The notes under the pieces: generated by a model
The model's database searches: none
Seen by the model: only the letters and a program-made list of their open reading frames with translations
Told to the model about the DNA's origin: nothing
Virus record (IMG/VR): IMGVR_UViG_2531839454_000026
Origin: a virus
Lineage: Duplodnaviria; Heunggongvirae; Uroviricota; Caudoviricetes
Length of the DNA: 26,722 nucleotides
Direction: 5' to 3' (one strand)
Part shown: positions 3,157 through 23,642 of the stretch, piece by piece
How positions within the stretch are numbered: the first letter of the stretch is position 1
Layout: every line of letters starts with the position of its first letter
Translations under genes and position numbers: made by a program

Positions 3157-3761
3157 GCGTTTACTCTCAGATTATCAATTAAATGAATGGCTGGGGCAGG
3201 GAAATAATCCCCTTCGACAATAATGGACTCCGGGGTGTAGGGATAAACCGTCAGGGCATCGCCGTGATAGCATCCCGTACCAACGAAAATCTTTCCGTTC
3301 ACACTCAGGCTGATCGCCAGCCCCGTCAGATGGCGACTTACTGGTTTTGCATCCGCAATAAGGCGCTCAAGTTCCTGATACATTTCATCGGTGATGCCCT
3401 GATCAAGTACTCCGACAACAATGCGAAATGTTCCCGGCTCCTCGTTGAGTTGCCACCACTCCTTTACTTCAATCAGGTAGCCGAGAGGCTCCACGGCTCT
3501 TCGCAGTGCGCTGATGGTCCCTTTGTGTCGGTGTATCAGCCATGCATCACGAATCACCTGTCGCTTTGTCTCTTCCGGCCAGTTGCGATCCCAGCGGTCA
3601 ACGGAAAACGCCCAGGCGAGATAAGGCAGCAGATGCACCGGGCAGGTGTCCGGCGACCACAGCGTGTTGAGGTCTACCGGAATGTCTGTAATGCGTGTTC
3701 CGACGGCTTCGGCACAACGCATGAAATTGCTGGCTGATGGTGGTAACAACGAATTACTCAT
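3153..3761 (-). CDS. I: Baseplate assembly protein I
   Basis: Position between J and H; ATG at 3761 preceded by RBS AAGGTGG (ORF track gives GTG at 3794); stop overlaps H start (ATGA). Confidence 0.75.
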   Translation of the reverse strand: MSNSLLPPSASNFMRCAEAVGTRITDIPVDLNTLWSPDTCPVHLLPYLAWAFSVDRWDRNWPEETKRQVIRDAWLIHRHKGTISALRRAVEPLGYLIEVKEWWQLNEEPGTFRIVVGVLDQGITDEMYQELERLIADAKPVSRHLTGLAISLSVNGKIFVGTGCYHGDALTVYPYTPESIIVEGDYFPAPAIHLIDNLRVNA

Positions 3762-14973: not shown

Positions 14974-16173
14974 ATGGCTTTTACAAAAATCAGAATCGAT
15001 AATCTGTTTTGCTTTGAAAATAGCATCCTTGACTTAAGCTTCTCCAGACCCCCGATCAACAGCTCACTGGAAGGTGAGTACATTGATGGATTTGAAAAGT
15101 TCTACTTCAAAAAGGTTTGCATCGTTTCTGGTGCTAATGCATCTGGTAAAACATCTCTTGGTCGCGTGATGCTTTCTGTGTTGCGTTTTCTCAGTAGTGG
15201 TGTTTTCAATCCAGAACCGTTAAAAATTACTGACAAAAGAAAACCTGCATATATAGAGGTTGACTTTTTCCAGAGTCATTTAAAATGTTTGTTTAGGGCA
15301 GGTGTCTGGCTTAGGGCTATGGATGAGTCTGTTGTTGTAGAAAAAATTGCAATGGCATCTGTTGATTTAAGAAGCTCGGAATCATGCGCAAAGACGACCA
15401 AAAGACTGGATGCTGTGTGGGATGCGCAAAAGTTTGAATTAAATGGTCAAAATAGATTTTTTTCAACCGAAAACGCTAACTCAAAAGAATTTTCCCAATA
15501 TTTAGAGGGTTTGGACTTTGTTCTTGGTTGGCATTTCATTCTATCTGAAAACCAAGAGAACACGGATAAAATATCACGAATTAAGAAGAATGTGCTTAAT
15601 AGCATATTAAAAACCTTTGACAATACTGTTAAATCTGTCTCAGGACTCACTCTTAAAGATGATGAGGGAAAGGAGGATTTGCAGGGTTATTCAGTAGTCT
15701 TCAATAATGGAGATAGAGTTATTATTGATATGGAAGGTGATATAACAAATAAAGATAGACTGTCTCGTGGTACTTATGAGGCAGTAAAAATATCCCATCT
15801 CCTGTCAGGAGTGCTTGAAGATAAAATAGAAGAGCGAGAGTTCAATTTCCCTTGCAGTGGGGTGTACTTTTTGGATGAGAAAATGGCCTTCACTCATACT
15901 GAATTAGAAAAAATGATGGTCACGCTGATTATATCTAAGCTTTGCAGATATGGTCAATTTATATACACCACACATAATTATGATATCTTGAGCTTAGATC
16001 TGCCTACGCATTCATATACTTTTACTAAAAAAGTAGATGGTGTAACCACTTTTGTTGAAGCTACCACACATCATAAAAAGAATGATCGCAATCTTTTAAA
16101 TAAAGTAAAAAATGACTGTTTTGCAACAATACCTGACGTTTCATTAATCGAAGAGATGCTATTTGAGGATTGA
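14974..16173 (+). CDS. ABC-type (OLD/AriA/AbiLi-like) ATPase, first gene of accessory cassette
   Basis: 399 aa; SMC/RecF-like N-terminus IRIDNLFCFEN; Walker A GANASGKTS; Walker B VYFLDE; H-loop-like TTHNYD; large insertion between Walker A and B; AT-rich codon usage. Confidence 0.8.
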   Translation: MAFTKIRIDNLFCFENSILDLSFSRPPINSSLEGEYIDGFEKFYFKKVCIVSGANASGKTSLGRVMLSVLRFLSSGVFNPEPLKITDKRKPAYIEVDFFQSHLKCLFRAGVWLRAMDESVVVEKIAMASVDLRSSESCAKTTKRLDAVWDAQKFELNGQNRFFSTENANSKEFSQYLEGLDFVLGWHFILSENQENTDKISRIKKNVLNSILKTFDNTVKSVSGLTLKDDEGKEDLQGYSVVFNNGDRVIIDMEGDITNKDRLSRGTYEAVKISHLLSGVLEDKIEEREFNFPCSGVYFLDEKMAFTHTELEKMMVTLIISKLCRYGQFIYTTHNYDILSLDLPTHSYTFTKKVDGVTTFVEATTHHKKNDRNLLNKVKNDCFATIPDVSLIEEMLFED

Positions 16174-16694
16174 TTATGGCAGTTAAGAAATTTGCTATTA
16201 TTCTTGTTGAGGGAGATACGGAAAAAGCATTGTTTCAGGATTTCAAAACATTGCTAGGCTATCCTATTAAGAAAATAGTAATTGCTAATTTATGGAATGT
16301 TAATATAAATAAATACATGCCAGCATTAACCGAAAATAGCGAAATCATAGTGGTTTTTGATACGGATAGGATTGAGAATCTTGATAGATTTAAGAATAAT
16401 CTCAATCTATTAAAGGCGAAAAAACACACAATCCACCTATTTCAACAAACAAGCAATTTTGAGGATGAGCTTGCCAATGCTTGTGGTGTAAGTAATAGAA
16501 AGTTGTATTCTTGTTTTTGCCCAAAGATCATCTCTGCAGATAACTTCAAGAATGAATTCATTGCGCTGCGCAACAGGATGATGAAATTAGATGGACTTGG
16601 ACTAAATAAAACGTTGCTTTGGAGTAGAGGGATTATCCCCCAATTGAGAGATTATAATTTTCATGTTTCCTCTCATGATGATTATTTTTTATAA
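16170..16694 (+). CDS. Small TOPRIM-like putative nuclease (RloB/DUF4276-like), second gene of accessory cassette
   Basis: 174 aa; start overlaps ATPase stop (ATGA); ILVEGDTE (conserved Glu) and VVFDTDR (DxD) about 50 residues apart = TOPRIM metal-binding signature. Confidence 0.7.
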   Translation: MIMAVKKFAIILVEGDTEKALFQDFKTLLGYPIKKIVIANLWNVNINKYMPALTENSEIIVVFDTDRIENLDRFKNNLNLLKAKKHTIHLFQQTSNFEDELANACGVSNRKLYSCFCPKIISADNFKNEFIALRNRMMKLDGLGLNKTLLWSRGIIPQLRDYNFHVSSHDDYFL

Positions 16695-17140: not shown

Positions 17141-18100
17141 TTACTCCTTGTCCATTGCGTACAAACCATTGACCAGAGCAAACTGTGGCACCCCGTCCGC
17201 GATGAAAGTCGCATTAACTCCGCAGGCTTCGCGGATAGCGGGTGCCACAATCTCCGCCCCTCCACCGACAACCATCACCCGCCCGTAACCCGAAAAACCC
17301 GCCAGCGCGCGGATCACTCGTTGTTTCAGTGTTTCTTCCTTTTCACGAATAACCGCCATCAGGCTGTCGTAATGCGCGTCATTGTGGATGTGCTGGCGCA
17401 GCCAGGCTTCATCATGGCGATGTTCGATAATGGTATTGGCGATGTGGTGACTGGTGCGCATACCGTTAGTGGCCATCACCGACAGTACGGCATCGGCCAT
17501 CAGAGAAACGCCTACGTGTGGATCGCAAAACACCTGGCTGATACCTGCCAGTTGCCCCTGAACCTTTGCCACATCCAGCGTGGTTCCGCCCAAATCCACA
17601 ATCAGCAGGGATTCAAACGGACTCATGTCAGCCAGTGCCTTAAAGCCAGCCGGAATGGATTCAGGCATAACCCGTACGTTACGGATAGTGAATGCTTCGC
17701 CGTTCTGGTACTCCACCGGGCGCATGACGTTCGCTTTTTTGCGGTTGATGTTGGCCATGTCCGGCTGTGCGTTTGTGTCGAAATACTCGCTCAGTGGCAG
17801 GGTGACAACCACATCCACCTCCTGTGGCGTGATGCCTGATTTGACCAGTGCGTGATGAATGGCAATGACATTCACATCACTGTACTGGTATTGCGTGTCG
17901 GTCGTCTGGACAAAGCGATCGCTGACCGGATCAAAACCATAGCGCACGCCATCAAGCATGTAGTTCGCGGGCTGCGTGCCACCGAACGGCGCAGACCATT
18001 CCGACTTGAAGCTGTTCGGGCTGATGGCGTTGCGGCGTTCGCCGTTCTCAGTCCATGCCAGCTTGATGTTGGTGGAGCCGTCGTCGATACAAATTTTCAT
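17141..18100 (-). CDS. parM: ParM/StbA actin-like segregation ATPase
   Basis: 319 aa; phosphate-1 IDDGSTNIKL, phosphate-2 LIVDLGGTTLDV, adenosine motif VMVVGGGAEIV; N-terminus nearly identical in pattern to R1 ParM. Confidence 0.9.
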   Translation of the reverse strand: MKICIDDGSTNIKLAWTENGERRNAISPNSFKSEWSAPFGGTQPANYMLDGVRYGFDPVSDRFVQTTDTQYQYSDVNVIAIHHALVKSGITPQEVDVVVTLPLSEYFDTNAQPDMANINRKKANVMRPVEYQNGEAFTIRNVRVMPESIPAGFKALADMSPFESLLIVDLGGTTLDVAKVQGQLAGISQVFCDPHVGVSLMADAVLSVMATNGMRTSHHIANTIIEHRHDEAWLRQHIHNDAHYDSLMAVIREKEETLKQRVIRALAGFSGYGRVMVVGGGAEIVAPAIREACGVNATFIADGVPQFALVNGLYAMDKE

Positions 18101-18129: not shown

Positions 18130-18244
18130 CGTTTACGGGATTCTGAAATCCCGTTTTTGCCTGTTTTGTGCGCGCTTCATATATCGCGGCGCGTTTTTTG
18201 CTCATTTACGGGATTTGTGAATCCCGTTTCTGTCTGTTTTTTGT
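18130..18244. repeat. Two ~40-bp direct repeats, each with a perfect 8-bp-arm palindrome (ACGGGATT-N4-AATCCCGT) and a T-run, flanking a third hairpin; spans A stop and the parM upstream region
   Basis: Palindromes at 18135..18154 and 18208..18227 (73 bp apart); hairpin CGCGC-N13-GCGCG + T6 at 18171..18199. Confidence 0.8.
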
Positions 18245-21002
18245 TTCCACTGGTCAGGCCACCCCGCAGCAGGTATGCTTTGCGGCGGGCGCGTTCAGTG
18301 GTTTCACTGATTCTCTGTGCGTGCTCTGCGTCGCGGATGGCGCGCAGCATGTCAGAAAGCACGGTAACGGGTGTTTTCATGGTGTTCTGGTCTTGCTGAA
18401 GTGTGGATGCCAGGCGTGCGGCGGCTTCAGGGTCTGATGCCCCCAGCTGTTCCAGATAGCTGGCGACCGGGTTATGGCGGATCTCCGTGCTGCTTACGCC
18501 GTGATTACGGCTCAGGCGTTGCCAGAGCTGCGTGATTCGGCTGTCCGGGCGGGTATCCGGTTTGCGTACAATTTCAAATCCCTGCGGTGCAATGATGCTG
18601 CCGTCAACGTACAGACTGCCACCCCGTAACAGGTGCAGCATCTGCTGTTCACCGATATGCAGGCCGAGAGATTCAGCAGACTCCCGCCATTCTTTAGCGA
18701 GTAACTCGTGGTTATCAGGCAAAGGCCGCGGCTGTTTGCGGCTCTGCGTCCAGTTCTGCATTTCATCGCTGCTGTTTTTGGCCTGTTTGTCACGCAGCGA
18801 ACGCATCAGCGCCCGGCGTTCGTGCCGTTTCAGTGAGTGCATCCATTCATTCACTTCAATGCCGTCAGGAAGCTGCGGCCACGGTGCTGGCCGTTCTTCC
18901 GGCTGTTCTGTCCCGTTGTTGTCTGTTTCCTGTACACGGGGACAGTTATTGCCACGAGTCCAAGGGGCGGCAGGGCCGCCCTGAAGGTCAAAACCATTTT
19001 CGCGGGCGCTGTCTTCCGCTTCCGGTTTACGTCTTACCAGCTTCCAGTTATCCGGGTGCGTGCACACGCGGGAAGATTCCCCTATTTGTGGCGACCAGAT
19101 CCCGTAAATCTGTACGCTTTGCTCGCCGTAATCGTTCAGCTCTTCTGCGAGGTCGTAGGCGGTGCGAATCAGGTAATCTTTGCGTGGAACAAGTACGCCA
19201 CCCTGTTTCTCTATGTAGGTGGCAAAACATCCGGCATCAGCGGCAGCAAGAACCGCGTCCATTGCGTCATCCTTCAGCCGTTGCGGGCCTTCCGGGTTGC
19301 GTGCCATCTGGCTGGCAAGGCGACGCAGTTCACGCCACACCTGACGGGAAGGGATACCAAAGAACTGGAACTGGCGGACCCGGTGAAGGCGCGCCCAGCC
19401 GATGGCGCGTTCCACGCTCTCGGCCATTGATTTTCCGGTTTCGTGGTCAACGCGTGGCTTGCCCGTTTTCGGGTCGATGCCATCCACGGCGCGGCTGTCC
19501 AGGTTCTTTCCGATGTAGGTGGCGATGTAGCTGGTTGGCGTGCCTTTTGAGCCGTCTACGTACTCCGCCTTAAAACGCGGAGTTATGTCATCGCCCAGCT
19601 CGTGGCGGTCTTCCTGAATGGCGATATCGCAGACGTGGGACACGATGGTTTCAATCTCGTCCGGGTGTGCAAAGACCATCATATGCCAGTGCACGGTACC
19701 GTCATGGTGAGGCTCCACCGTGCGGATGCCATACCAGCGCAGACCGTCGCGGTTCAGTTTTTTGCGGACCGCCGCAAAAAACGTGTTAACCAGGTAATCG
19801 CTGGAGTCGCGCATGGTGGCCCCGTTCCATTTGGGGTTCGGATGACCGTTCTCCGTTGTTGCGTGGTATTTTGACGGGCAGGTGACAGTCAGAAACACCG
19901 CTCTGTCGCCACGGGCTTCGGCCAGAAGTTCCAGCCCTTTCATGGTGGCCATCATTTCTGCCTTACGGTGGACCGGGTTACTTACTCCCGCGTAATACAC
20001 CGTCTCGAGATCAATCGTGAACCCGTCTTCATTTTCCAGCATGAAACTTTTCAGGAAATCGCGTGTTTTCTCGCGCTGTGCGCGAAATTCACTTAATGCG
20101 TCCTGACTCAGATAGGGCGATGTTTTTCTGGAAACCAGACAGGCAGCGCGGAGTTGTTCCTCTCTCCATTCGCAACGTAAAAGCCACAGTTTGCGTTTCC
20201 ACCATTCCGCACAGGTCAGGCGAAGGATTGCGCCCGGCAGCAGTTCCGTATCCGGTTCGCTCTTGTTCAGGGCTTCGTAATGTGGCGGCATGATGTGCAG
20301 GCGTAATGCGATACGAGCCAGCATCCGGTAAGCCTTCAACATTACATCCATGGTCAGCTCGCCATCTCTGGCACCAAAGCCATCGCAGAGTGTTTCGAAG
20401 GTGCTGCTGAACATCGCCGCGGTCATGGTGGCCAGCGTCTGTATCTGGTGTTTGTTGAGCTGCGGCAGGGAAAGCAAATCGTCCAGGCGTTCGCGCCCGG
20501 CAAGGGAGCGATAACCCGGTGTCAGCCAGCGTCCGTCAGTGCGATCCAGACGTTCGAATATTTTGCGCAGGGTTCCGCGTGCATAGCGTTCCGCCTGCCA
20601 GCTCTTTTTGCCTTTCTGGCGATCGGCTTCCTGTTTTTTGCGCAGGAAAGAGAGGTGACGGCTCAGTGGTTCACGCAGATAAACAGGTAGTGCCTTTAGT
20701 GTGGCAAAGGCACGGGCTACCGGGTCTTGTTCTGTTGCCCGGCGCTTACTGATGATGCTCTGTGCCAGCTTTTCACGCTGTCCGGCTTCCTCAAGGGATG
20801 CCATGAGTTTTTTACCCATGGCGGATTGTGCGAAAAAGGCTTCTTCCTTCGCTTCCTGTTCTTCCAGTGCCCTTTTGTCTGCCTCAAGGTAGTAACGGAT
20901 GGCGCGTTGCAGGTCGGTTTCAGTTTCCTGCCTGCGCTCCGTAAATCTGGCCGGATCAATGGCTGGCCGTGGTTCATTCCAGCTCCATGCAAACTCGCTC
21001 AT
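18177..21002 (-). CDS. A: Replication initiation endonuclease A (rolling-circle, gpA family)
   Basis: VEPHHDGTVHWHMM and YIATYIGKNLD motifs; likely start MSEFAWSWNEP at 21002 (ATGA overlap with upstream ORF), ORF track start 21029. Confidence 0.9.
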   Translation of the reverse strand: MSEFAWSWNEPRPAIDPARFTERRQETETDLQRAIRYYLEADKRALEEQEAKEEAFFAQSAMGKKLMASLEEAGQREKLAQSIISKRRATEQDPVARAFATLKALPVYLREPLSRHLSFLRKKQEADRQKGKKSWQAERYARGTLRKIFERLDRTDGRWLTPGYRSLAGRERLDDLLSLPQLNKHQIQTLATMTAAMFSSTFETLCDGFGARDGELTMDVMLKAYRMLARIALRLHIMPPHYEALNKSEPDTELLPGAILRLTCAEWWKRKLWLLRCEWREEQLRAACLVSRKTSPYLSQDALSEFRAQREKTRDFLKSFMLENEDGFTIDLETVYYAGVSNPVHRKAEMMATMKGLELLAEARGDRAVFLTVTCPSKYHATTENGHPNPKWNGATMRDSSDYLVNTFFAAVRKKLNRDGLRWYGIRTVEPHHDGTVHWHMMVFAHPDEIETIVSHVCDIAIQEDRHELGDDITPRFKAEYVDGSKGTPTSYIATYIGKNLDSRAVDGIDPKTGKPRVDHETGKSMAESVERAIGWARLHRVRQFQFFGIPSRQVWRELRRLASQMARNPEGPQRLKDDAMDAVLAAADAGCFATYIEKQGGVLVPRKDYLIRTAYDLAEELNDYGEQSVQIYGIWSPQIGESSRVCTHPDNWKLVRRKPEAEDSARENGFDLQGGPAAPWTRGNNCPRVQETDNNGTEQPEERPAPWPQLPDGIEVNEWMHSLKRHERRALMRSLRDKQAKNSSDEMQNWTQSRKQPRPLPDNHELLAKEWRESAESLGLHIGEQQMLHLLRGGSLYVDGSIIAPQGFEIVRKPDTRPDSRITQLWQRLSRNHGVSSTEIRHNPVASYLEQLGASDPEAAARLASTLQQDQNTMKTPVTVLSDMLRAIRDAEHAQRISETTERARRKAYLLRGGLTSGNKKQTETGFTNPVNEQKTRRDI

Positions 21003-21388
21003 GGCTGGTATCCCGTCACGCGCTGCCACTCCTGCGAGAAAATGGCGGAAAGGCGGTTAAATTCAGCGGTGTATTCACTCAGCGAGGCACACCCGCCAGC
21101 AGTGCGATGCGCCAGCATTGCCGCGAATACGGAGGCCGGGGAGTCGTAATACGCCAGCAGTGATTCGCCGTGTGGTGTCAGGCAGTGCAACGCCAGCCCG
21201 TGTGGTGTGAAATCCACGCGGTAGCAGTCGTCTACTGTGAAATAAAGGGTGTCCGCATTCTCCGGTTTTGTAGTGCGTGCTCTGTTGTCACGACCACGGA
21301 TGTAAAGATCAAATAATCCCTGAAGAACGGGAGCCAGACGGGTGTCCTGTGTGCGCACCCATCTTGTGAAGTCATGAGCGTCAATCAT
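20999..21388 (-). CDS. Hypothetical early protein
   Basis: 129-aa ORF translationally coupled to A. Confidence 0.5.
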   Translation of the reverse strand: MIDAHDFTRWVRTQDTRLAPVLQGLFDLYIRGRDNRARTTKPENADTLYFTVDDCYRVDFTPHGLALHCLTPHGESLLAYYDSPASVFAAMLAHRTAGGCASLSEYTAEFNRLSAIFSQEWQRVTGYQP

Positions 21389-21460
21389 GCTGCAATTCTC
21401 TTTACTACAGATGTGCGAAGGCCTCCCGCCGCAAGGTGCAGGAAAGGCCCGGAACAGGAA

Positions 21461-21691
21461 TTAATGGAGTTTGTTTTGCTGCTGGATGAGCTGCTGAAGC
21501 TCGCGCAGATCATCCGCCAGATAGCTGAAAACAGCGGATGAGTAGAGGTTTGAAAGTTCGCAGCTACGCTCATGCAGCATATTGATGTGCATGATTTTAG
21601 CGACACGGAATGCGCGGGAAAGTCTGCGGTTGATTTCAGTCTGGATGTGACGACGCTCCGCGATAGCGCGGTGCTGTTTGCGGTTTGCCAT
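21461..21691 (-). CDS. Hypothetical small basic protein
   Basis: 76-aa ORF in early operon orientation. Confidence 0.4.
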   Translation of the reverse strand: MANRKQHRAIAERRHIQTEINRRLSRAFRVAKIMHINMLHERSCELSNLYSSAVFSYLADDLRELQQLIQQQNKLH

Positions 21692-21864
21692 GGGGTGGCC
21701 TCTTTGGTTGTAAGTTTTGAAAACTCACCATCCAGAGCTGCGAAACTGTGGGTGGCGAGACGTACGGGGTTCGCAGTACCGGCAACCAAAGAACCCGGCC
21801 CGACCGAAGTCGGCCCCGTACGCCCCGCCATAATTCGTGTGCGAAAAAGACGTGGCAATACAGT

Positions 21865-21897
21865 ACGCACAAAAAAACCGCTGGCGCGGTTGTGCGC
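21865..21897 (-). terminator. Candidate intrinsic terminator inside the early operon
   Basis: On the - strand: AACCGC-GCCA-GCGGTT hairpin immediately followed by TTTTT, with flanking GCGCAC/GTGCGC outer arms. Confidence 0.4.
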
Positions 21898-22027
21898 TTT
21901 GGTTGTCAGCAGGCTGCGAAACCCGGCACCCGTTTTATGAGGTGCAGCGAAAATGTAACCTGACTGATTGCGGCATGGCAAGCGGTTTTTTTGTGAGAAC
22001 GGCATACTAAAAAATCCTGATACTGCT

Positions 22028-22052
22028 CCGGCCAGCGATTTTCACTGGCCGG
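22028..22052 (-). other. 8-bp GC-rich stem-loop immediately 3' of the SPFH gene
   Basis: CCGGCCAG-N9-CTGGCCGG, 7 nt downstream of the stop; U-run is not adjacent. Confidence 0.35.
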
Positions 22053-22058
22053 GTTTAA

Positions 22059-22889
22059 TTACTTCACCGGAACAAACGGAACAGCGGTATTGCTGGTCAT
22101 GTATTGCGGCAGCGTGCCGTTCCATTTGTTGATTGCTTCCAGCTCCATAACGCCGGGATTCTGGCGCAGAGCTTCACCGCGTAAACGAATGGCGTCGGCT
22201 TCAGCCTGGGCTTTTGTGCGAATGGCATCAGCCTGTCCGGCAGCTTCTGCGCGCAACATGTTGGCTTCTGCTTCGCGCTGTTTTACTTCCTGTTCGCGTT
22301 GCAGGGTTTTCTGGTTCGCTGTGACTTTGGCATTAATGCTGTCGATCACGGTTGGCGGGTATTCCGGTTTACCGACATAAGAGAGGCTCATTACCTGAAT
22401 GCCGATAGGTGTCATTTCTGCCTGAATGTCTTTAAGTGCTGAATCCAGCAGTTCAGACTTGCCACCGTCGATAAACTTATCGGTGGTCATTTTGCTGGCC
22501 AGTCGGTTGAGTGCATCGGCGATCTTTTGGCGCAGGTCAGTGTCGGTAATGTCATCCACGCCTTTGCGGTAGGTCTGAAACACTGTGGTAACTTTGGATG
22601 GATCAACCTTGTAGGCCACACCGATGTGATAGCCGATGGTTGTGCCGTCACTCATCTGAAAGCTGAATGGCTCATCGTAGGTCTTCATTTGTTTGAAGGT
22701 CGGGAAGATGTAAACCTCGGTATTCCAGCCTGTCCAGTAGCGGCCAACGCCAACCACTTCACCGACGCCTTTATCGTCGCCCAGTTTGTTGACTTTGATG
22801 CCCACATTACCTGGCTCAACGCGATCGCAACCAACCAGCAGGATGGCGGCAAAAAGCGGGATAATCTGAAAGAGTTTGAATTTCTTCAT
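22059..22889 (-). CDS. SPFH/band-7 (prohibitin/stomatin-like) lipoprotein
   Basis: 276 aa; signal peptide with lipobox LLVGC; central SPFH-like region followed by Ala/Glu/Gln-rich coiled-coil (QREAEANMLRAEAAGQADAIRTKAQAEADAIRLRGEA). Confidence 0.8.
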   Translation of the reverse strand: MKKFKLFQIIPLFAAILLVGCDRVEPGNVGIKVNKLGDDKGVGEVVGVGRYWTGWNTEVYIFPTFKQMKTYDEPFSFQMSDGTTIGYHIGVAYKVDPSKVTTVFQTYRKGVDDITDTDLRQKIADALNRLASKMTTDKFIDGGKSELLDSALKDIQAEMTPIGIQVMSLSYVGKPEYPPTVIDSINAKVTANQKTLQREQEVKQREAEANMLRAEAAGQADAIRTKAQAEADAIRLRGEALRQNPGVMELEAINKWNGTLPQYMTSNTAVPFVPVK

Positions 22890-23089
22890 TGTTTGATTTC
22901 CTTGATGTACTTACTGAAAAGGCGAACAACGCCTGCCGGGTACAGCATGGCAATGAAAATGCCCAGCAATACCAGGAAGGAGCTGTCTGATGAAATCATT
23001 CGGGGGAGTAGTCCTGCATACAGAATGAGAGAAACGAGGACGCATACCAGCGCCCACATGTATGCGCGAAACCAGGTCTTTTTGTTCAT
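22886..23089 (-). CDS. Small two-TM membrane protein coupled to the SPFH gene
   Basis: 67 aa, two hydrophobic helices; stop overlaps SPFH start (ATGA); RBS AAAGGA. Confidence 0.55.
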   Translation of the reverse strand: MNKKTWFRAYMWALVCVLVSLILYAGLLPRMISSDSSFLVLLGIFIAMLYPAGVVRLFSKYIKEIKQ

Positions 23090-23100
23090 ATCGCGGTCCT

Positions 23101-23400
23101 TTACTGGTTAAGGAAGAAATCAAAAACCTTGTCGATGCGTTGCAGTAGCTCTCGTTGCATTGCTTCCGGCGTTTCTGGTTCACCAGGCGAACCCAGTGGT
23201 GCGCAGAAATCAGCGATTTCATGATGGAGCGCCAGGCGAATGGCTGGAGACATGGTTCTGGCGTGCTCCAGCTCATCCAGCAGTGCCAGCACGGCAGACG
23301 GCGAGAGCATTGCGCGAAACGCCAGTAATTTTTGATGCGTTGCCATTCGTTGCAGGTCAATCGCCAGTTCGCGTAATTCCTGATGGTTGATGGCGCTCAT
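23101..23400 (-). CDS. Hypothetical early protein
   Basis: 99-aa ORF, ATGA-coupled to upstream gene. Confidence 0.5.
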   Translation of the reverse strand: MSAINHQELRELAIDLQRMATHQKLLAFRAMLSPSAVLALLDELEHARTMSPAIRLALHHEIADFCAPLGSPGEPETPEAMQRELLQRIDKVFDFFLNQ

Positions 23401-23642
23401 GCTCTGGCTTCCTTCAGTAGCTGGTTAAACATGTTGGTAAGTGGATTGCCGCACCCGAACGGCATCGGGTTTATCTGGTAAGAAAAGCGACCGCCTGTTT
23501 TGCGCTCTTTTCTTATGACTGAACCGCTGCGCCAGAGTCGGCGTAACTCCGCATTAATGGCTGTGGTTGGGGTATTCAGTGCTGCGGCGATTTCTCCACC
23601 GCTACACCCCGGATTGGCGGCGATATAGTCCAGAATGGTCAT
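23397..23642 (-). CDS. Putative winged-helix DNA-binding protein
   Basis: 81 aa; MTILDYIAANPGCSGGEIAAALNTPTTAINAELRRL resembles a wHTH recognition unit. Confidence 0.45.
   Translation of the reverse strand: MTILDYIAANPGCSGGEIAAALNTPTTAINAELRRLWRSGSVIRKERKTGGRFSYQINPMPFGCGNPLTNMFNQLLKEARA

Follow-up and report, generated by a model that had tools for sequence, protein, structure and literature searches.

SPFH proteins form cages on membranes. The cages of HflK/C, prohibitin, flotillin, stomatin and erlin have recently been solved, and their effect on client proteins is debated. To our knowledge, most bacterial SPFH proteins have no clear phenotype. In HflK/C and prohibitin 1/2, the protomer consists of an SPFH core, a long wall helix and a C-terminal cap segment, and the proteins bear their own N-terminal helices as the transmembrane (TM) part. 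In the SPFH-NfeD operons (QmcA-YbbJ, YqiK-YqiJ, FloT-YuaF and archaeal stomatin-STOPP), the SPFH gene is co-transcribed and coupled with a gene for a small membrane protein. This partnership is conserved, and the partners are now and then fused. QmcA and YqiK face the cytoplasm. Flotillin and stomatin of eukaryotes also face the cytoplasm, and they are attached to the membrane by palmitoylation rather than by a full TM helix.

SPFH genes also occur in phages, and a 2026 paper still calls their presence there unexplained (PMC13239085). A 2026 survey of SPFH proteins in P. aeruginosa does not mention phages, and in the literature on phage SPFH proteins we found annotations and speculation and no experiment. 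The pair of genes described here is essentially the same as P88 gp11/gp12 (SF19_gp11/SF19_gp12), phiP27 L05, and PHROG 200 and PHROG 1130. These carry labels only ('lipoprotein', 'membrane protein', 'putative serine protease'), and we found no analysis of their function or pairing in the literature.

A two-gene cassette is optional in P88-like prophages

The window, the whole stretch of 26,722 nt that we analyzed, is a phage P88-like (Xuanwuvirus) prophage of E. coli and is P2-like. We found that it contains a portable two-gene accessory cassette (Table 1). The window is homologous to three sister phages (P884B11, PhiR44_2 and an ST131 P88-like phage) up to 21995 and again from 23101; in these phages, ~18 bp replace the cassette. 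Among 5426 complete E. coli genomes, the contiguous empty site was found in 957 and the cassette in 145. The pair is thus not part of the P2 core, as a preliminary description of this DNA had proposed. Like a moron, the cassette is polymorphic for presence or absence at a fixed site between conserved genes. Its GC content does not single it out as foreign (0.48-0.54 vs 0.52-0.55 in the flanks). Its carriage by phages as an option also sets the pair apart from HflK/C and prohibitin.

Table 1. Features of the cassette and its neighborhood (positions in the window)
Feature	Position	Strand	Basis or detail
Whole inserted cassette	21996..23100	-	1105 bp: ribosome-binding spacer, 2-TM partner gene, SPFH lipoprotein gene, 3' hairpin
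Gene for 67-aa inner-membrane partner	22886..23089	-	ORF and hydropathy
ATGA stop/start overlap (translational coupling)	22886..22889	-	Read from sequence; partner TGA over lipoprotein ATG
SPFH/Band_7 lipoprotein gene	22059..22889	-	276 aa
Signal peptide with lipobox L18-V19-G20-C21; Asp22 at +2	22827..22889	-	Sequence
SPFH (Band_7) domain, residues 23-209	22263..22823	-	Pfam match coordinates; alpha/beta core in AlphaFold model
Ala/Glu/Gln/Arg-rich helix, residues 179-243	22161..22355	-	AlphaFold secondary structure, composition
C-terminal motif K-W-N-G-T-L-P, residues 255-261	22107..22127	-	89-member family alignment
Cassette 3' hairpin	22028..22052	-	RNAfold; 11-bp stem, AAA loop, 6 nt past lipoprotein stop
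isrK-like sRNA (neighbor, outside cassette)	21871..21945	-	Rfam RF01394, 65.9 bits, cut-off 50
C4-type antisense RNA (neighbor, outside cassette)	21748..21835	-	Rfam RF01695, 87.1 bits, cut-off 45
Derepression (antirepressor-type) protein gene, 76 aa (neighbor, outside cassette)	21461..21691	-	Pfam PF25738, 29.5 bits, cut-off 27

Closely related cassettes were present in 711 of the 5426 genomes (about 13%). Their carriers are P2-like, lambdoid/Stx and P1-like phages, plasmids of about 110 kb, and lytic N4-like and rV5-like phages. A locus search with a 12-sequence alignment returned only near-identical E. coli-type loci, and distant single queries returned 0 to 9 loci; the wider diversity was sampled from annotated phage records. 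Of 50,697 phage records, 666 have a member of the homologous SPFH family.

The lipoprotein gene encodes a full-length SPFH protomer

We found that the 276-aa product is a full-length SPFH protomer, with an SPFH core, a 65-residue wall-type helix and a W-N-G-x-L-P tail. Pfam Band_7 (PF01145) matched it with 107.9 bits (cut-off 23.6; E=7.6e-31) over profile positions 2-176 of 176, and PHROG 200 ('lipoprotein') matched it with E=8.8e-112. Its identity to the P88 SPFH lipoprotein (RefSeq locus tag SF19_gp12) is 99.3%, and its phiP27 homologue has a mature domain 97% identical to that of the window lipoprotein.

AlphaFold run on the lipoprotein alone from a single sequence gave an unusable model (pLDDT 46.5), and we used an 89-sequence alignment instead (pLDDT 92.7, pTM 0.74). 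The resulting model has strands at 21-95 and 164-176, helices at 97-159 and a further helix at 179-243. It shows the SPFH alpha/beta fold, the long coiled-coil helix and the C-terminal segment. Foldseek matched it over its full length to prohibitin, HflK/C, erlin, stomatin, flotillin, QmcA and major vault protein, with a probability of 1.00 and E values from 6.5e-14 to about 1e-6; prohibitin, HflK/C, erlin and stomatin were the top matches. The SPFH-like core noted in the preliminary description is therefore borne out by profile, model and structural search alike, and its Ala/Glu/Gln-rich coiled coil is a single helix in the model (60% A/E/Q/R/K). This helix aligns with the wall helices of prohibitin and HflK/C, and flotillin and stomatin have a similar Ala/Glu-rich wall helix. 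In the solved SPFH assemblies, the cage wall is formed by a long helix of this type. In the C-terminal motif, W256 and G258 are invariant among the 89 family members, and P261 is nearly so.

HflK/C and prohibitin share the fold and the whole protomer plan with the phage protein and are its best matches by both sequence profile and Foldseek. Among solved proteins, the nearest by sequence were prohibitin 1 (E=1.6e-11) and HflK/HflC (E=1e-7 to 1e-6), and QmcA was a weaker match (E=1e-3). However, the phage lipoprotein is only 14-19% identical to HflK/C and prohibitin, and it is much shorter than HflK (276 vs 419 aa). There is one SPFH gene rather than a paralogous heterodimer pair, and the adjacent gene encodes a 67-aa 2-TM protein. 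The lipoprotein is not an HflK or HflC orthologue: it scored 24.8 bits against NCBIfam TIGR01932 (HflC; cut-off 134.4) and 22.7 bits against TIGR01933 (HflK; cut-off 159.4).

The N-terminus predicts a lipoprotein of the inner membrane

The N-terminus of the 276-aa product reads MKKFKLFQIIPLFAAILLVGC followed by DR. It has the layout of a lipoprotein signal peptide, with K2, K3 and K5 followed by a hydrophobic core and the lipobox L-V-G-C21 (Table 1). The lipobox, also read in the preliminary description, fits the pattern [LVI][ASTVI][GAS]C of the Lgt/LspA/Lnt pathway, and acylation of Cys21 is predicted from it. A loose pattern found a lipobox in 110/150 family representatives; by a stricter classification, 84 of the 131 full-length representatives were plain lipoproteins.

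Asp at +2 is the Lol-avoidance signal of E. coli. Here it stands in the sequence C21-D22-R23, and Arg at +3 reportedly may weaken the retention conferred by Asp. C-D-R is common to the P88, phiP27 and P1 types of E. coli cassette. All three retain the longer C-D-R-V-E-P-G-N despite signal peptides that are 32-42% identical. Outside enterobacteria, the +2 residue of family members is often Ser or Thr.

We are fairly confident in the prediction that the SPFH protein lies on the periplasmic face of the inner membrane, held by N-terminal acyl chains. The prediction is based on Asp at +2, on the inner-membrane partner, and on fused forms of the two proteins that force the same location (see below). 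For the same reasons, an outer-membrane lipoprotein that blocks a receptor, of the Llp/Cor type, is unlikely. The predicted arrangement resembles that of HflK/C, which also faces the periplasm and is anchored in the membrane at its N-terminus. In contrast to HflK/C, the phage protein would be held by lipid and not by an N-terminal TM helix, and the TM part is on a separate (or fused, probably cleaved) 2-TM polypeptide. It would differ from the cytoplasm-facing QmcA and YqiK in orientation. Attachment by acyl chains is shared with flotillin and stomatin; the phage version, however, would be an Lgt/LspA-type N-terminal lipoprotein on the extracytoplasmic face.

A 2-TM partner is coupled to the SPFH gene

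The preliminary description had reported a small two-TM protein translationally coupled to the lipoprotein, and both statements hold. The partner has hydrophobic segments at residues 10-28 (TM1) and 37-55 (TM2), between the positively charged ends MNKKTWFR and RLFSKYIKEIKQ. Its predicted topology is N-in/C-in with a periplasmic loop of 8 residues, in which the motif P-R-M-I-S-S occupies positions 29-34. In the general form P-x-[LM]-[IV]-S, the motif is conserved among the partners of P1-like, lambdoid, N4-like, rV5-like, Pseudomonas and Burkholderia phages. PHROG 1130 ('membrane protein') matched the partner with E=1.3e-22. No Pfam family scored above its cut-off, the sole match being RseC_MucC (14.6 bits, cut-off 24.4).

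As in SPFH-NfeD operons, the membrane-protein gene is adjacent to the SPFH gene, co-oriented and coupled to it. The likeness to SPFH-NfeD pairs that had been suggested does not extend to the partner itself: the NfeD profile (PF01957) did not match it at E<=0.1, and a protein of 67 aa, consisting of two TM helices and the loop, is too small for an OB-fold domain.

The two genes overlap by ATGA (Table 1), and AAGGA Shine-Dalgarno-like motifs precede both starts. We found an overlapping 2-TM ORF upstream of the SPFH gene in 79/80 related viral loci, with overlaps of 1, 4, 10, 19 or 20 nt. This frequency puts the pairing far above chance. Further, the partner and the SPFH protein are fused in a single reading frame in about one sixth (21/131) of the family representatives; 15 of these 21 fused forms have the loop motif and 17 still have a lipobox. 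Distant family members have another partner or none. The two genes stay together over many phage lineages and are thus a conserved pair. The three E. coli partner types are 25-45% identical, in contrast to 95-98% identity between the mature domains of their SPFH proteins. Any contact between partner and SPFH protein would therefore have to be loose or confined to the loop with its short motif.

The pair lies in the early operon, upstream of an RNA control module

In the leftward early (Pe) operon, the pair comes after a Cox-like gene and several small early genes and before gene A (Pfam Phage_GPA, E=8e-129); the preliminary description had placed it between the small early genes and A. Only 11 nt separate the stop of the preceding gene from the start of the partner gene. 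A consensus scan upstream of the pair in the window, in phiP27 and in a P1 variant found no promoter, and site counts were no higher than in shuffled sequences; the scan was crude, and this weak negative cannot exclude expression in a lysogen. The promoter and terminator of its own with which a moron is expressed from a repressed prophage were thus not found for the cassette. Related pairs in lambdoid, N4-like and rV5-like phages are in early or delayed-early units too. The placement in early lytic units and the failure to find a separate promoter speak against functions for which the quiescent lysogen would have to express the pair.

A hairpin and a large non-coding gap had been described past the pair. 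The hairpin is there (Table 1), and it is absent at the empty site. A U-run (22009-22014) begins 13 nt beyond the stem, so the hairpin is not a canonical intrinsic terminator, and the terminator scan did not call it. The gap, in contrast, is not empty: positions 21692-22058 have no protein genes but hold the isrK-like and C4 RNAs. The isrK-like sRNA has a promoter-like site (21981-21952) and a terminator-like site (21891-21876) in the scan. Past the two RNAs come the 76-aa gene, whose P88 counterpart is annotated 'derepression protein', a 129-aa gene, and then A. Judged by these matches, the region 3' of the cassette is an sRNA/antirepressor control module.

We considered whether the cassette is linked to this module and rejected it. 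Sister phages without the cassette still have the module, including the isrK-like sRNA, and the phiP27 locus and the P1 variant have the cassette without the module.

A candidate mechanism and its alternatives

Our results are most consistent with an SPFH ring or cage that is made early on the periplasmic face of the inner membrane together with the 2-TM partner. We put the probability of this structural reading at about 0.6, a figure that excludes the identity of the client. After Lgt/LspA processing, the SPFH protein would be lipid-anchored on the periplasmic face. The long helix would then drive oligomerization into a ring or cage, as in prohibitin, HflK/C, erlin and stomatin. We infer the cage by extrapolation from homologues that are 14-19% identical; it would be built from one protomer type, as are the (near-)homo-oligomeric cages of flotillin and stomatin. 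The partner, made at about 1:1, would supply a transmembrane 'fence', with its conserved periplasmic loop contacting the SPFH base. Assembly would take place during lytic development and not in the quiescent lysogen, given the early-operon position and the lack of a recognizable promoter. Against this reading count Arg at +3, the frequent Ser or Thr at +2 outside enterobacteria, the divergence of the partner types, and the distant family members with another partner or none. The walled-off membrane patch might conceivably change what comes within reach of a periplasm-facing machine in the host inner membrane.

The preliminary description had suggested that the pair could modulate a host membrane protease, act in superinfection exclusion or sense membrane damage. 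For the client, FtsH-type quality control of membrane proteins and, for the role of the cassette more broadly, superinfection exclusion are our leading guesses. FtsH is our first choice, tentatively and with the odds against it, because prohibitin and HflK/C are nearest by sequence and cage FtsH-family proteases, and because HflK/C at least faces the periplasm, as predicted for the phage protein. A contact of HflK Arg191 with FtsH residues 62-64 has been reported (PMC12048511). The universal occurrence of FtsH agrees with the broad range of hosts of the phage SPFH family. However, the phage protein scores far under the orthologue cut-offs for HflK and HflC, and it is not obvious why a strictly lytic phage would need to modulate FtsH; both points count against this client.

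Superinfection exclusion, or competition more generally, is a rather doubtful alternative, yet the strongest of those considered. An early periplasm-facing scaffold might occupy or reorganize the inner-membrane surface, with early timing like that of T4 Imm and Sp, and so block genome entry or periplasmic transit of later phages, or it might blunt host responses that target membranes. The distribution is that of an accessory gene, patchy in near-identical phages and common to unrelated phages of one host. Strictly lytic phages have the family as well, which fits if exclusion operates in the lytic cycle. Most phage lipoproteins and small proteins of the inner membrane whose role is known are exclusion factors (T5 Llp, Cor, T4 Imm, P22 SieA, HK97 gp15), which also favors this alternative. 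The analogy with these proteins and with T4 Sp is one of role only: they are small accessory phage envelope proteins made early or from morons, but they have neither the SPFH fold nor kinship in sequence or fold to the phage pair, and Llp and Cor are receptor-blocking lipoproteins of the outer membrane. In the Vi01-like phage PhiSH19, the SPFH gene adjoins a gene annotated as superinfection exclusion (PMC3220722), an adjacency that is known from annotation only and concerns a distant homologue. Neither protein fits a defense model in PADLOC-DB v2, where the SPFH protein had 0 matches and the partner only a chance-level match to PDC-M18B (E=0.0078, 14.2 bits). No promoter for prophage expression was found in the scan. 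Moreover, the mature domains of different phage types share 95-98% identity, unlike fast-diversifying exclusion proteins, and a single family occurs in phages of very different entry routes and hosts.

A role in membrane integrity or lysis timing is quite unlikely. Here a holin-like or membrane-perturbing partner would be restrained or organized by the SPFH ring, keeping the membrane energized until late or tuning the time of lysis. The size of the partner and its N-in/C-in two-TM layout are those of class II holins. In Kayvirus Sb-1, the SPFH gene is behind a gene for a holin-like 1-TM protein, just past the endolysin gene (PMC7150955), and in a crAss-like phage the order is SPFH gene, 3-TM protein gene, peptidoglycan hydrolase gene. 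These lysis-gene neighbors are found only for distant homologues with unrelated partners, however, and the pairs of the window and of the lambdoid, N4-like and rV5-like phages examined are among early or DNA-metabolism genes, not beside annotated lysis genes.

It is very improbable that the protein acts on an animal host as a surface or virulence lipoprotein of lysogenic conversion, for instance by leaving the cell in vesicles as a TLR2 agonist. Stimulation of TLR2 is common to all triacylated lipoproteins and does not favor the idea. A bovine E. coli chromosome matches the window at 100% identity, and Stx phages have relatives of the cassette; there is also a precedent in the Pasteurella multocida prophage HflK/C-like protein PM0222 (SPFH superfamily), which induces cytokines and whose deletion attenuates (PMC9872710). 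Against this, the family is common among strictly lytic phages and phages of environmental bacteria, the promoter scan found no promoter for lysogen expression, and a place at the cell surface is at odds with Asp at +2, with the fused forms and with a partner in the inner membrane.

The idea of a membrane protease, either a serine protease or a system of the NfeD type, can be dismissed, although many GenBank records label the gene 'putative serine protease': legacy labels in phiP27, Stx2 phages, Caulobacter phages and others and a weak match to PHROG 11227 ('protease'; E=3e-4, residues 164-259, mostly coiled-coil helix) favor it, but Pfam finds Band_7 only and detects neither a peptidase nor an NfeD domain in the two proteins, and the AlphaFold/Foldseek model is a pure SPFH protomer. 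The label presumably comes from an old association, that of SPFH operons with ClpP-class NfeD proteases.

The early cage on the inner membrane thus remains our preferred reading. The cassette is a known fold, SPFH, in a modestly new arrangement. If two small genes build a periplasm-facing cage, they would be a compact and portable system for the anchoring, closure and loading of SPFH assemblies. They would also inform what a phage gains by partitioning the inner membrane of its host. Possible gains are control of FtsH-dependent proteolysis and hence of the decision between lysis and lysogeny, protection of its own membrane proteins, and keeping out competitors.

A bolder version of this reading, which we regard as unlikely, is a self-sufficient, minimal phage SPFH nanocage with a lipid-anchored wall and a split-off 2-TM fence. 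Made early and placed on the periplasmic side of the host inner membrane, it would sequester FtsH or another universal host machine or seal the membrane against later phages, and in some lineages it could be made as one precursor cut by signal peptidase II. Such a nanocage would be the first viral organizer of bacterial membrane microdomains and a two-gene model for client selection by SPFH cages.

Our results correct the widespread annotations 'serine protease' and 'transposase fusion' and show the small upstream ORF to be part of the SPFH unit.

In relatives, including phiP27 and P1 variants, the small upstream ORF is often unannotated.

The SPFH lipoprotein and its small membrane partner

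We found that the early region of the prophage encodes a two-transmembrane (2-TM) protein whose gene overlaps that of an SPFH lipoprotein (see table). The preliminary description had proposed this coupling, and the ATGA overlap between the 67-aa 2-TM gene and the lipobox-bearing 276-aa gene was confirmed in the sequence. An AAGGA motif lies 5' of both start codons. Hydropathy placed the partner's TM segments at residues 10-28 and 37-55, with a predicted periplasmic loop of 8 residues (PRMISSDS) between them; an N-in/C-in topology is predicted because both ends carry basic residues. The lipobox of the SPFH lipoprotein is L-V-G-C21, with Asp at +2. In PHROGs, the two products matched phrog_1130 ('membrane protein'; partner, E=1.3e-22) and phrog_200 ('lipoprotein'; SPFH protein, E=8.8e-112).

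Coordinates of the cassette and associated features (positions in the window unless a locus is named)
Feature	Position	Strand	Basis or remarks
2-TM partner gene	22886..23089	-	ORF, 67 aa: MNKKTWFRAYMWALVCVLVSLILYAGLLPRMISSDSSFLVLLGIFIAMLYPAGVVRLFSKYIKEIKQ
SPFH lipoprotein gene	22059..22889	-	ORF, 276 aa, N-terminus MKKFKLFQIIPLFAAILLVGC|DRVEPGNVGIKV
ATGA stop/start overlap, 2-TM gene to SPFH gene	22886-22889	-	read from sequence
Hairpin 3' of SPFH gene	22028-22052	-	11-bp stem; folded 78-nt stretch, -23.5 kcal/mol
Cassette including its own 3' hairpin	21996-23100 (1105 bp)	-	junctions versus sister phages
isrK sRNA	21871-21945	-	Rfam, 65.9 bits (cut-off 50)
C4 antisense RNA	21748-21835	-	Rfam, 87.1 bits (cut-off 45)
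Antirepressor module: isrK-like sRNA, C4-type RNA and 'Derepression' gene in tandem	21461-21981	-	Rfam, Pfam
phiP27 2-TM partner, 62 aa	L004 (phiP27 locus) 3292-3480		ATGA overlap with SPFH start; unannotated in record
P1-variant MH422554 2-TM partner, 78 aa	L005 (P1-variant locus) 3309-3545		overlaps SPFH start; unannotated in record

The 276-aa protein belongs to the SPFH superfamily. Pfam Band_7 matched residues 23-209 (107.9 bits, cut-off 23.6; E=7.6e-31). AlphaFold gave a pLDDT of 46.5 from the single sequence, compared to 92.7 (pTM 0.74) with an alignment of 89 family sequences. The latter model has an SPFH alpha/beta core, an unbroken helix (residues 179-243), a short helix and a C-terminal tail. 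Full-length Foldseek matches in the PDB were to prohibitin (8rrh), HflK/HflC (7vhq, 7wi3, 9cz2), erlin and stomatin (E=6.5e-14 to ~1e-10), to flotillin and QmcA (~1e-8), and to major vault protein (1e-7 to 1e-6). Against PDB sequences, the family profile ranked prohibitin 1 first (E=1.6e-11), followed by HflK (1.6e-7), HflC (1.1e-6) and QmcA (1.1e-3). A C-terminal W-x-G-x-x-P motif is conserved in the alignment, its W and G invariant and its P nearly so. The Band_7, AlphaFold, Foldseek and profile results bear out the SPFH core described previously, and the composition of helix 179-243 (60% A/E/Q/R/K) agrees with the Ala/Glu/Gln-rich coiled coil.

Scores were far below the orthologue cut-offs for HflC (24.8 bits versus 134.4) and HflK (22.7 versus 159.4), and both assignments were rejected. 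An NfeD-type partner, also considered at the outset, was not found: the small protein has no NfeD domain in Pfam, and therefore this is not an SPFH-NfeD pair. The SPFH lipoprotein is predicted to face the periplasm, as HflK/C does. Unlike described bacterial SPFH systems, it has a lipoprotein anchor, combines a predicted periplasmic face with a single protomer type, and is paired with a dedicated 2-TM protein, in some cases as a fusion.

The pair is an accessory insertion

The prophage is P2-like and resembles phage P88 (Xuanwuvirus, Peduoviridae). Identity to P88 is 94.6% over region 21300-23500 and 99.3% between the SPFH protein and its P88 homologue (RefSeq locus tag SF19_gp12). The chromosome of bovine E. 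coli E2855 matches the pair region at 100% identity. On the minus strand, genes for Cox-like, DUF4761, 112-aa and DUF4754 products, small ORFs, and genes for a MarR-type wHTH and an Ead/Ea22-like protein are followed by the 2-TM gene, the SPFH gene, isrK, C4, the derepression gene, a 129-aa ORF and gene A. Genes for the HTH (C-type) repressor and integrase are divergent from this early operon.

In P884B11, PhiR44_2 and an ST131 P88-like phage, homology to the window breaks off after 21995 and picks up again at 23101; the intervening sequence in these phages is ~18 bp. These junctions with the empty site define the 1105-bp cassette; the earlier statement that the pair is not part of the P2 core was thus correct. 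The ATG of the 2-TM gene takes the position of the empty site's next reading-frame start, 11 nt past the Ead-like stop. Of 5426 complete E. coli genomes, 957 had a contiguous match to the empty-site probe and 145 carried the P88-type cassette, a carriage of ~1 in 8 prophages of the P88 type.

The pair is real and widespread, and an SPFH protein here is unsurprising in itself. The genes were already annotated in P88 and, except for the 2-TM partner, in phiP27. By tblastn, SPFH homologues were present in 666 of 50,697 phage records, including lambdoid phiP27 and Stx2 phages, P1 variants, lytic N4-like, rV5-like and FelixO1-like phages, phages of Pseudomonas, Burkholderia, Stenotrophomonas and Caulobacter, and crAss-like and Lak phages; distant homologues were found in Staphylococcus and Enterococcus myoviruses. 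Nucleotide-level relatives (711/5426 E. coli genomes) were split about equally between chromosomes and plasmids of ~90-113 kb, and the 90-98 kb plasmid group had the same 86-87% identity as P1 variants. An exhaustive HMMER search of 1.84 billion cluster representatives yielded 221 clusters at E<=1e-30 and 2894 at E<=1e-3. Giant viruses also encode SPFH proteins.

Some homologues are annotated otherwise. In Burkholderia phage phiBtTUL1a (L101, 2501-3304), the homologue on the plus strand is unannotated, and an 1824-nt opposite-strand 'hypothetical protein' CDS, probably a mis-call, is annotated instead. In records of related phages of Burkholderia, Pseudomonas and Erwinia, the homologue goes under 'transposase fusion protein' or 'putative transposase'.

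The two products probably act together

A 2-TM ORF overlapped the SPFH start in 79/80 related IMG/VR loci. The same layout and a loop motif, P-x-[LM]-[IV]-S-[AS], were found for partners in the N4-like phages S6 and Paxi, in rV5-like GEC_vB_MG (with one gene between partner and SPFH gene) and in a P. aeruginosa phage; the BcepF1 partner has a looser motif, P-W-L-I-N-E. All tblastn matches to the P1-type partner adjoin an SPFH gene. Plain lipoproteins account for 84 of the 131 full-length family representatives. Another 24 possess an N-terminal TM helix but no lipobox, and in 21 the 2-TM module precedes SPFH as an in-frame fusion. The fused forms have the loop motif in 15/21 and a lipobox after the two helices in 17/21. 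As Rosetta-stone evidence, such fusions argue for joint action of the two products; they also assign the SPFH domain to the inner membrane. Some distant members have another coupled membrane protein (1-TM MbpV in Kayvirus, a 3-TM protein in Caulobacter phage Ccr5), and SunLIRen and a crAss-like phage have no coupled membrane partner.

Among the three E. coli cassette types (P88, phiP27 and P1), mature SPFH domains share 95-98% of their residues (87-92% identity in DNA). Signal peptides are 32-42% and partners 25-45% identical, and as DNA neither the signal-peptide segment nor the partner gene can be aligned. DNA homology to phiP27/Stx and P1-type cassettes ends at ~22832, just 5' of the Cys21 codon. 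The mature domain is thus swapped, or conserved, separately from the partner and signal peptide. The partner's contribution, whatever it may be, tolerates wide divergence in all but the short loop motif. In the phiP27 and P1-variant loci, the mosaic edge at the lipobox cysteine is sharp (window ~22827-22832).

Predicted topology, assembly and timing

All three E. coli types share C-D-R-V-E-P-G. Asp at +2 is the classical E. coli Lol-avoidance signal, and Arg at +3 may weaken it. From Asp+2, the inner-membrane partner and the fusions, we infer that the lipoprotein faces the periplasm, anchored by its acyl groups in the inner membrane's outer leaflet. In all solved SPFH relatives the long helix mediates assembly of a ring or cage enclosing a membrane patch. 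Since these relatives all assemble and every protomer element is present, the C-terminal W-x-G-x-x-P motif among them, we propose by analogy that the lipoprotein may form a homo-oligomeric ring or cage. The 2-TM partner could serve as its transmembrane fence, the role of the N-terminal helices of HflK/C and prohibitin themselves.

Weak consensus scans found no promoter-like site upstream of the pair in the window, phiP27 or the P1 variant, and the 2-TM start codon comes just 11 nt after the stop of the gene before it. In the window the pair is internal to the Pe early operon; in phiP27 it is distal in the leftward operon, on the int/xis strand, and in lytic phages its neighbours are early or DNA-metabolism genes. 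The scans and these positions point to synthesis during lytic growth and not in a quiescent lysogen.

Possible functions

PADLOC gave no match for the pair, and the literature on phage SPFH proteins contained annotation, speculation or statements of unclear role (PMC13239085), with no experimental function found. An HflK/C-like role in lysogeny has been suggested speculatively (PMC10269572, PMC4936722). Our leading but tentative reading (probability roughly 0.3) is that the client is FtsH-type quality control of membrane proteins. Proteases of the FtsH family are the partners of prohibitin and HflK/C, the nearest relatives; HflK/C faces the compartment predicted for the lipoprotein, and the target is universal. 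Exclusion of competing phages is a rather doubtful second reading, consistent with the accessory gene pattern and with the action of most phage envelope lipoproteins of known role. A part in membrane integrity or lysis timing is improbable; in its favour are the holin-like layout of the partner and distant homologues that adjoin lysis genes. A virulence lipoprotein is a minor alternative; a P. multocida prophage HflK/C-like protein is reported to be a TLR1/2-stimulating virulence factor (PMC9872710). That the SPFH protein is itself a protease was rejected.

Two observations come from the literature. In PhiSH19 the SPFH gene adjoins a gene annotated as superinfection exclusion. For gp200 of the Vi01-like phage Sajous1, true virion association or carried-along membrane debris could apply.

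Neighbouring genes

The preliminary description had placed a hairpin and a large non-coding gap after the pair. The hairpin is present, but it is not a canonical terminator, because a gap of 13 nt separates the stem from the U-run that follows. The stretch 21692-22058 lacks a convincing protein gene but is not empty, as it holds the isrK and C4 RNAs. Promoter-like and terminator-like sites match the RNA positions, with a promoter-like site before each. The derepression gene (76 aa, Pfam 'Derepression' family) lies 3' of them, and the whole resembles a P1/P7 immI-type or Gifsy-type sRNA-controlled antirepressor module. Cassette-less sister phages also have this module, so it is a neighbour and not part of the cassette. 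The module lies in a P2-like early region, just upstream of gene A, and early transcription would have to pass the isrK terminator-like site (21891-21876) to reach A.

A 206-aa ORF (21385-22005, minus strand) is open through isrK and C4 (21748-21945) and overlaps the derepression gene in a different frame. Residues 17-108 matched Pfam Phage_ASH (30.5 bits, cut-off 26), and some phage and E. coli records label it 'transcriptional regulator' or 'ash family protein'. It may be a genuine overlapping gene; alternatively, the Ash family may consist in part of translated conserved sRNA genes.

The gene A product (18177-21029, minus strand; 950 aa) has a Phage_GPA domain at residues 194-513 only, and its ~440 C-terminal residues had no Pfam match. 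Adjoining this replication gene is a complete ParM/StbA actin-like plasmid-segregation protein (17141-18100, minus strand; halves E=1.8e-82 and 1e-68), also annotated in P88 and odd in an integrating P2-like phage. Overlapping plus-strand genes at 14974-16694 encode 399-aa (AAA_15 ATPase) and 174-aa (OLD-like TOPRIM) products. They matched AbiLi (E=9.6e-28) and AbiLii (E=6.2e-5) in PADLOC, with AriA and GajA weaker, and are probably an AbiL-type anti-phage system, roughly at the position of the tin/old cargo in P2.
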